A stretch of 7,663 nucleotides of DNA, from IMG/VR virus record IMGVR_UViG_2778261534_000005. One strand, written 5' to 3'. Both the position numbers and the translations under genes were made by a program. The notes under the pieces were generated by a model. It saw only the letters and a program-made list of their open reading frames with translations. It was not told the origin of the DNA and did no database searches. Source of the DNA: a virus (lineage: Duplodnaviria > Heunggongvirae > Uroviricota > Caudoviricetes). The first letter of the stretch is position 1, and each line of letters opens with the position of its first letter. Positions 7,290 to 7,415 of this stretch are shown here, one piece after another.

Positions 7290-7342
7290 CTACGTGAATA
7301 AAGCAAAGTTAATACCCACACCAAAAATTATTTTTCACGTAG
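7290..7342. promoter_or_regulatory. 9-bp inverted repeat CTACGTGAA-N35-TTCACGTAG downstream of the tape measure gene
   Basis: Arms at 7290..7298 and 7334..7342 are exact reverse complements. No T-tract follows the right arm. Confidence 0.4.
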
Positions 7343-7373
7343 CTCACGCTTAACAGAGAAAATACTTATATAT

Positions 7374-7415
7374 CAAAGGCTTGGTTAAAAATGATTAAAA
7401 TACACTAAGCCTTTG
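7374..7415. promoter_or_regulatory. 9-bp inverted repeat CAAAGGCTT-N24-AAGCCTTTG just upstream of the next gene
   Basis: Arms at 7374..7382 and 7407..7415 are exact reverse complements. The right arm ends 8 nt before the AAAGGAG ribosome-binding site of the gene starting at 7434. Confidence 0.4.

Follow-up and report, generated by a model that had tools for sequence, protein, structure and literature searches.

The DNA analyzed here, referred to throughout as the window, is a stretch of 7,663 nucleotides from the viral record IMGVR_UViG_2778261534_000005 (Caudoviricetes). Its right part holds a tape-measure gene and the start of a gene for a Dit-like distal tail protein, separated by an intergenic gap that contains two inverted repeats, IR1 and IR2 (Table 1). 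Both had been reported in a preliminary description of the sequence and both are present with the arms, positions and spacers given there, IR1 as CTACGTGAA-N35-TTCACGTAG and IR2 as CAAAGGCTT-N24-AAGCCTTTG (7374-7382 and 7407-7415); IR2 is a perfect 10-mer (TCAAAGGCTT at 7373-7382 and 7407-7416) rather than the 9-mer described. The core of IR1 begins 12 nt past the tape-measure stop codon, and the repeat extends imperfectly to arms of 23 nt (7279-7301 and 7331-7353) that are 78% complementary. As had been noted, neither repeat is followed by a T-tract; a GC-rich stem with a subsequent T-tract was found at neither, and no terminator was called in the gap. A promoter scan of positions 7278-7433 predicted no sigma-70-like promoter on the + strand, and a scan for tRNA and tmRNA returned none. 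A 27-aa open reading frame (ORF) at 7270-7353 was rejected as a candidate gene, as it is not conserved in the relatives.

The number of such repeats was compared with dinucleotide-preserving shuffles, counting perfect inverted repeats of at least 9 bp. The window holds four with spacers of 20-40 nt against 0.72 expected (P=0.0065), and seven with spacers of 3-60 against 2.0 expected (P=0.006), none of the seven being located within a long ORF. In the gap alone, the two observed repeats compare with 0.07 expected (P for two or more, 0.0026). The preliminary description had held the repeats to exceed chance and had called for a shuffled-sequence control, and these figures bear it out. On the + strand the whole gap folds with a z of -3.4, IR1 with -15.3 kcal/mol (z=-3.0), and IR2 with -19.2 kcal/mol (z=-4.1), the latter leaving the Shine-Dalgarno sequence (SD) free. 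When the 5' arm of IR2 is left out of the fold, the segment CCUUUG of its 3' arm pairs with CAAAGG, which overlaps the SD.

A third repeat, at 3069-3115, was likewise confirmed as real, and had been taken together with IR1 and IR2 as one recurring class of 9-bp repeats in this genome. This grouping does not hold. Pattern scans for IR2 and the 3069 repeat recovered the same sequences in the clade of the window only, all other matches being unrelated, and membership of either in a wider family was rejected on these scans. Because these two are restricted to the clade and IR1 occurs across genomes, the three do not form a class, but are unrelated sequences with very different distributions.

To define the family of IR1, viral contigs were scanned for exact arms with any spacer of 25-45 nt (21 lengths). 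The scan gave 15 loci, 12 of them with exactly N35 (53 nt), in P1-like and other unrelated contigs whose GC content ranges from ~35% to ~65%. A second scan for exact arms, with spacers of 30-40 (11 lengths), covered a 596-Gb collection with one genome per species and gave at least 122 matches. Among the matches listed, 87 of 122 measure exactly 53 nt and a further 17 measure 54 nt. By arithmetic, ~9 chance matches are expected per spacer length across this collection, so that the excess at N35 is large; matches of other lengths, for instance those in actinobacteria, are probably due to chance or to other elements. The listed genome matches belong overwhelmingly to Gammaproteobacteria (Pantoea, Erwinia, Yersinia, Rahnella, Citrobacter, Enterobacter, Pseudomonas, Azotobacter and Alteromonas).

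When 89 distinct copies were oriented iteratively, an asymmetric consensus emerged, (g)cg-CTACGTGAA-WTCTGA-(A-rich)-GCAGGGG-nWTAAy-...-CAGAW-TTCACGTAG-cg(ncgcc), frequently with a T-run after it. The copies have in common a WTCTG/CAGAW extension of the stem, which lengthens the 9-bp arms to ~14-16 bp, and a central G-run, and they display symmetrically conserved flank positions (G at -7, CG adjoining the arms, C at +7). Positions outside the fixed 9 bp are paired and covary above shuffled and slid controls with a modest effect (covariation score of 0.124 versus 0.087±0.009 in shuffles, with 0 of 500 shuffles as high).

A covariance model termed R1, whose E-values are rough, was built from 60 copies. 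At window positions 7280-7352 its score is higher on the - strand (55.6 bits, E=5e-13) than on the + strand (31.8 bits); the former is partly circular, as the alignment includes the identical core from relative L004 and the close copy of L014. Support for the membership of IR1 that is independent of R1 is provided by the shared loop motif ATACCC..AAAAAT, which is present in L016 and L020. The model found no second copy in the window, and gave a single strong match each in the window, T7, P1, JK004, and Erwinia and Pantoea phages. Rfam returned no match in the window at E<=1 and none at the elements in 12 loci; among representative copies, its sole match was a sub-threshold chance match to mir-137. 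Literature searches by arm sequence and by keyword found no relevant description of the element. These comparisons show IR1 to be a copy of a widespread, conserved 53-bp palindromic cassette, which has been disseminated by horizontal transfer among the phages, plasmids, islands and chromosomes of gammaproteobacteria. The sequence of IR1 is conserved far outside this genome, with family members in unrelated phages, plasmids and chromosomes.

Table 1. Features of the tape-measure/Dit junction and related loci, in window coordinates
Feature	Position	Strand	Description
Tape-measure gene	5100-7277	+	phrog_4036, E=3.6e-96; TIGR02675; patchy DNA identity to Felixounavirus tape-measure genes
Intergenic gap (composite insertion)	7278-7433	+	156 bp, from tape-measure stop to ATG at 7434
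IR1, 53-nt palindromic element	7290-7342		arms 7290-7298 and 7334-7342, 35-nt centre; 'G orientation' of the family corresponds to the - strand
IR1, extended imperfect hairpin in mRNA sense	7279-7353	+	TTAA..GTG..core..CAC..TTAA
Conserved right flank, CTCACGCTTAACAGAG	7343-7358	+	follows both element copies in relatives
IR2 hairpin	7373-7416	+	13-bp stem (7373-7385 and 7404-7416) with one G.U pair, 18-nt loop; clade-specific
Alternative pairing	7410-7427	+	CCUUUG 7410-7415 (3' arm of IR2) with CAAAGG 7420-7425, overlapping the SD AAGGAG 7422-7427
Dit-like distal tail protein gene, start	7434-7663	+	phrog_3721, E=7e-46; PF21821 on the full-length homologue
Third repeat, GAGTGAGAC-N29-GTCTCACTC	3069-3115		sequence unrelated to IR1 and IR2; clade-specific
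Junction, empty (TAAACAATG)			L330, L331
Junction, ~195-nt insert with IR1 only			L006-8, L011, L294, L326
Junction, 156-157-nt insert with IR1+IR2			window, L003-5, L009, L010, L014, L024, L184

The R1 match in T7, at 36874-36947 with 32.2 bits, falls between genes 18 and 18.5 and has the sequence CTACGTGAA-ATCTGAAAGTTAACGGGAGGCATTATGCTAGAATT-TTTACGTAA. Its left arm (NC_001604, ~36884-36892) is non-coding, the central G-run constitutes the SD of gene 18.5 (Rz), the ATG is found at element position 34, and the right arm codes for Leu-Leu-Arg. The arrangement is the same in T3, BA14, Pisces and Sibilus, with a well-conserved left arm and a variable right arm. The annotated RNase III site R18.5 of this group is a distinct hairpin just upstream of the element, and in T3 the annotated stem-loop ends ~15 nt before it. 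An ATG at position 34 is enriched in the family (11 of 89 copies), and in T7 it is the real Rz start. The possibility that IR1 represents the start of a conserved protein was set aside, given that bacterial copies yield short unrelated ORFs. The exception is a 20-codon ORF (MLQNSRSAFFIYAGFCYNPA and variants) that starts at this ATG in four Rahnella species (L034, L061, L106, L123), the conservation of which may be due in part to an overlap with the 3' end of the neighbouring gene.

About a dozen copies at Cre-type recombinase loci display a common order: a lox-like 34-bp site, 37-122 nt, the element in either orientation, 20-42 nt, and the recombinase ATG. P1 contains a degenerate copy (30.1 bits) between loxP and cra/cre, at a distance of 101 nt from the former and 33 nt ahead of cra; the annotated -10 of promoter pR1 falls within the left arm of this copy. 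Both between P1 and JK004 and among the Cre-like leaders, the element occupies the same position in either orientation. The idea that the neighbouring Cre-like recombinases use IR1 as their recombination site was rejected, as the loci have canonical lox-like sites at the distance given above; validated pox/rox-type sites have this 34-bp form. In Alteromonas (L077, L110, L114) the lox-like site TTCACGCATGATAAT-TACA-GTTATCATGCGTGAA has terminal TTCACG/CGTGAA hexamers as in the element arms, and two element copies lie ~1 kb apart beside a Cre-like recombinase gene. Further occurrences include a half-relic in pOXA-48 plasmids and copies in the early leader of Era103-like Autographiviridae.

Chromosomal copies are intergenic, often 6-37 nt past a stop or 9-46 nt ahead of a start, and their orientation with respect to the flanking genes is random (++ 25, -- 24, -+ 15, +- 15). 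At orthologous Rahnella loci, conservation is higher in the element than in the flanking sequence. In Pseudomonas and Azotobacter, a subfamily of 53-54 nt with conserved flanks lies within a palindrome of ~105 bp (L045, L050, L054, L057, L060, L064, L065, L079, L083, L085, L087, L094, L097, L099) and occurs on several contigs of one genome, a behaviour like that of REP doublets forming hairpins (REPINs) or miniature inverted-repeat transposable elements (MITEs). No full-length copy of consensus form was found in E. coli genomes with a consensus query, which could not detect copies of the window type.

Within the clade of the window, which holds 15 distinct copies, the element is optional and duplicable. 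The tape-measure/Dit junction is found in three states among the relatives, namely empty, with IR1 only, and with IR1 and IR2 (Table 1). An imperfect direct repeat of ~18-20 nt at this junction flanks the ~195-nt insert, not the element itself. The L006-type relatives share with the window just positions 7312-7357, both flanks having diverged, and the homology of L009 and L010 to the window begins at 7312; the element therefore forms an island of homology at module boundaries. The right flank holds an exact CTTAACAG motif at 7349-7356, and a portion of it, ACGCTTAACAGAG, is also found at 'empty' sites. Felix O1 and garuso have no gap here, as the stop of the tape-measure gene overlaps the start of the following gene, and true Ounavirinae genomes (84-93 kb) have no element at the junction. 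Because Felix-O1 phages and some island relatives have this stop/start overlap at the same position, the gap is read as an insertion, and the comparison of relatives shows it to be an optional composite of two hairpin modules, one comprising IR1 and its flank and the other IR2 and the ribosome-binding site (RBS).

A second copy of the element is located just upstream of the tape-measure RBS in L003-L006, L009, L010 and the E. coli island L288; this site is empty in the window, L007, L008 and L011. With a slash marking the boundary, the empty site is GTATATG/AACGCTTAAC, read as GTATATG/AACGCTTAACAGAGG, and the filled site is GTATATG/TG(53 nt)CTC/ACGCTTAA..., a comparison that shows no duplication of the target site. 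A terminator-like hairpin, GGGGAGAG...CTCCCC then TTTTT, is found at 5030-5068, just upstream of the tape-measure RBS; directly downstream of it the window is empty and many relatives have the second copy. Some relatives also have an extra small hairpin insert, AGATAGTCTTCTATC.

The gap sequences of 8 relatives were aligned to analyze substitutions in the two stems. In IR1, pair 35/76 is evenly split between G-C and G.U (four sequences each), and two inner pairs covary (AU/UA and AU/CG). The changes in IR2 comprise G.U (one), U.G (two), G.U to A-U (two) and one mismatch. In the + sense the stems together contain 13 G.U cells versus 1 A.C cell. The variant TTTACGTAG, present in 10 of the 15 copies of the clade, likewise forms G.U in that sense. 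The stem changes in the clade preserve pairing only in the mRNA sense and break the DNA symmetry, and the alignment shows both stems to be maintained in the relatives. Of the RNA-level structures or recognition sites proposed in the preliminary description, the former are best supported at this locus, and a DNA-level role remains as a rival.

We tentatively favour, at a probability that falls a little short of even, a reading in which the gap carries optional, portable hairpin modules that are transcribed within the mRNA. IR1 and IR2 would both be part of the tape-measure/Dit transcript and act there as RNA stem-loops. From its position behind the tape-measure stop, IR1 would serve as intercistronic structural punctuation, providing a barrier to decay or processing and a break in translational coupling. 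IR2 would sequester the CCUUUG segment that could otherwise pair with the SD region, keeping the Dit RBS open for independent initiation. Being conserved between diverged sequences, the cassette would in addition constitute a homology patch where modules can be exchanged, much like the stem-loop cassettes of T4-type phages considered below.

The RNase III processing hairpins of the T7 group, such as R18.5, offer a parallel, as they are intercistronic structures of ~50-60 nt in polycistronic phage mRNAs and the T7 element lies directly downstream of R18.5. The two differ in that R18.5 is a separate upstream stem-loop in T3 and T7, and the SD and ATG of gene 18.5 lie inside the element. The T7 element is not known to be among the mapped RNase III sites.

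Several observations weigh against transcribed hairpins as the function of the cassette. The strand-specific evidence consists of few independent substitution events in one clade. In the family at large, no asymmetry between G.U and A.C is found in the consensus orientation (72 vs 74), nor when the stems are read in the direction of co-directional flanking genes (20 vs 21), and the random orientation of the element relative to genes fits a DNA-level or selfish element and a symmetric hairpin alike. BA14 and Sibilus conserve the left arm and not the right, so the hairpin is not always maintained. The arm invariance in the large set of copies is fixed by the search pattern, and the junction modules are dispensable, since some relatives have an empty junction.

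A broader reading, which we regard as unlikely, is that the element is an unrecognized mobile cis-regulatory cassette. Its invariant stem would be read by a trans-acting partner, possibly a conserved host protein or RNase, and its 35-nt centre would flip in place. Instead of one more REP-like repeat, it would be a portable signal of gene boundaries of a new class, with copies in T7, P1, plasmids, Cre-type recombinase loci and the chromosomes of gammaproteobacteria. If the shared signal is confirmed, one short element would link regulatory regions never before connected, namely the start of T7 gene 18.5, the leader between loxP and cra/cre in P1 with its promoter pR1, and the sequences ahead of Cre-type recombinase genes; the same element is found at hundreds of sites between genes in Pantoea, Erwinia, Yersinia, Pseudomonas and Alteromonas. 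Cre-type recombinases are genome-engineering tools, and the element could affect expression from their native leaders. Confirmation would also give a testable handle on gene-boundary punctuation and module exchange among phages, plasmids and chromosomes, for which the junction alleles of the island (empty, IR1 only, IR1+IR2) provide a natural experiment that allows direct comparison.

The foremost alternative to the favoured hairpin modules, which we consider doubtful, is that IR1 is a selfish miniature mobile palindrome akin to MITEs, repetitive extragenic palindromic (REP) sequences or REPINs, and without function for the island. Its spread and duplication would be due to a hairpin- or end-recognizing enzyme or to template switching, its arms would be conserved for mobility, and the mRNA hairpins would be a by-product. 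This is consistent with the presence/absence polymorphism and intragenomic duplication, with the random orientation, with the either-way placement at related loci (P1 versus JK004 and the Cre-like leaders), with the multi-copy versions inside ~105 bp palindromes in Pseudomonas and Azotobacter, with a distribution over phages, plasmids and chromosomes, and with the dispensability of the junction modules. By contrast, the clean comparison of filled and empty sites reveals no target-site duplication, the copy number appears low, and no transposase-like neighbour is recurrent, only a Cre-like recombinase with its own lox-like site. The Rahnella element that outlasts its flanks and the fixed position in the T7 group suggest, moreover, selection for a local role.

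Comparison with known repeats points in both directions. Like REPs, bacterial interspersed mosaic elements and REPINs, the element is a short, extragenic, imperfect palindrome in either orientation, often after stops or between cistrons, that would form mRNA hairpins, has a GTAG/CTAC tetranucleotide at its ends and, in Pseudomonas and Azotobacter, occurs as multiple copies inside longer palindromes. It differs in its apparently low copy number, 1-6 per genome among the matches listed, for which exact arms were required (two copies in the E. coli island and flanks, 31 kb), and in a GTAG located inside the stem instead of 5' of it. REPs are lineage-specific, whereas this single family spans many genera, virulent phages and plasmids. 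No link to REP-associated tyrosine transposases (RAYTs) was seen in a clustering of neighbours within ±2.5 kb, where only the Cre-like recombinase was recurrent, no genome-wide RAYT search being made.

Bacterial MITEs such as ERIC/IRU, Correia, RUP and YPAL have been reviewed (PMC2229807). The element shares with MITEs its terminal inverted repeats, together with presence/absence polymorphism at orthologous sites and insertion beside genes, both of which were found, as well as putative transcribed hairpins that may affect mRNA and the capacity to supply start codons or ORF ends, as occurs in T7 gene 18.5. It is, however, much smaller (53-71 bp) and also present in lytic phage genomes, and neither a target-site duplication nor a parent insertion sequence was identified.

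That IR1 acts at the DNA level appears distinctly unlikely. In one form it would be bound by a dimeric protein or one that recognizes bent DNA, with two half-sites of 9-16 bp at a fixed separation of 35 bp; in the other it would be a recombination linker whose main effect is the exchange of the tape-measure module. The length fixed at 53 bp around a variable centre, the symmetric flank positions, the absence of a family-wide RNA strand asymmetry and the conservation of the left arm alone in some T7-group phages agree with such a role. So does the P1 copy, part of which may be untranscribed as its left arm coincides with the pR1 -10, and the linker form is in keeping with copies that bracket the tape-measure gene and homology breakpoints that fall in the element. 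Against this, most clade copies have asymmetric arms (TTTACGTAG) that break DNA symmetry and keep RNA pairing, and no promoter is predicted in the gap. Hosts that range from Alteromonas to Escherichia, in unrelated contexts, make a single dedicated regulator unlikely. The consensus sequences of IHF and DnaA sites were matched by eye at no more than 7 of 9 positions, and by-eye comparison with parS, the ARG box, the MotA box, IHF and DnaA sites, DNA uptake sequences and the class II T7 terminator gave no motif that fits.

The linker form recalls the promoter early stem-loop (PeSL) cassettes of T4-type phages, which are small conserved intergenic stem-loops that flank variable genes and are composite motifs of early promoter and terminator (PMC2839356, PMC4122927). 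As with PeSLs, homology islands occur between unrelated sequences, here with copies that bracket the tape-measure gene and breakpoints in the element. The element differs in sequence, its family extends well past one phage group, and neither promoter nor terminator is detectable in this gap, so that the composite structure of PeSLs is not found here. Integron attC sites resemble the element as imperfect palindromes of constrained architecture in which the ends are conserved and the centre varies, and some element copies adjoin a tyrosine recombinase gene. The consensus, however, is devoid of the R''/R' core sites (RYYYAAC / GTTRRRY), the loci are mostly single-copy and form no cassette arrays, and the linked recombinases are Cre-like with lox-like sites of their own.

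Coincidental matching within AT-rich spacer DNA is refuted as the source of the two repeats: perfect repeats of 9-10 bp do arise randomly, ~0.7 per window for spacers of 20-40 nt, yet the shuffle controls, the IR1 homologues with an identical spacer in hundreds of unrelated sequences, and the conserved stems with compensatory changes in relatives leave this explanation a negligible probability.

The window had been taken as part of a viral genome; it is part of a small chromosomal island, not of a free phage. The island is found in 545 of 5,426 complete E. coli genomes and has relatives in Escherichia albertii and Citrobacter. In one annotated example (L288 11130-21852) it spans ~10.7 kb between ymdF and wrbA, has a small and a large serine recombinase at its ends, carries small ORFs and the tape-measure and Dit genes, and contains no capsid, terminase, sheath or tube genes. 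The Felix-O1-like tape-measure and Dit genes are its only recognizable phage structural genes, and it looks like a satellite or tail-assembly interference element. The island proteins gave no PADLOC match and no NCBIfam match except the tape-measure domain, and a literature search on the island found nothing relevant.

No phage record matches window positions 1-5090. From 7458 onward, 24 nt past its ATG, the DNA of the Dit gene has 96-97% identity to Felixounavirus, whereas the tape-measure gene aligns in patches only, with ~75% and at most ~78% identity. The similarity switches abruptly between 5100-7457 and 7458-7663, a pattern that implies a recent exchange with virulent Felix-O1-type phages.

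Further features were observed elsewhere in the window. With up to one mismatch, the CTTAACAG motif occurs 33 times against 9.0±3.1 expected. Of the 33 sites, 16 fall, on both strands, in the first 1.1 kb, which is devoid of ORFs, and a near copy, CTTAAGAG, is found at 5081-5088 upstream of the tape-measure RBS; these may be candidate binding sites for an island-encoded protein. Upstream of ORF 4071, two inverted repeats are interleaved (3959-3985/4018-4044, 27 nt, 85%; 3999-4010/4049-4060, 12 nt, perfect). The arm at 4049-4060 overlaps the SD of this ORF, and the region 3959-4060 could form an alternative-structure switch. The 550-bp non-coding segment 3518-4070 contains a near-consensus sigma-70 promoter at 3619-3647 (TTGACA-17-CATAAT, with an upstream TG), followed directly by a terminator-like hairpin and T8 at 3657-3673. 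In the non-coding left part of the window, two direct repeats of ~60 nt are located at 870-1020 (tatatggctaattacaac.tattgaaaaataag...ttttagaagttactgt).

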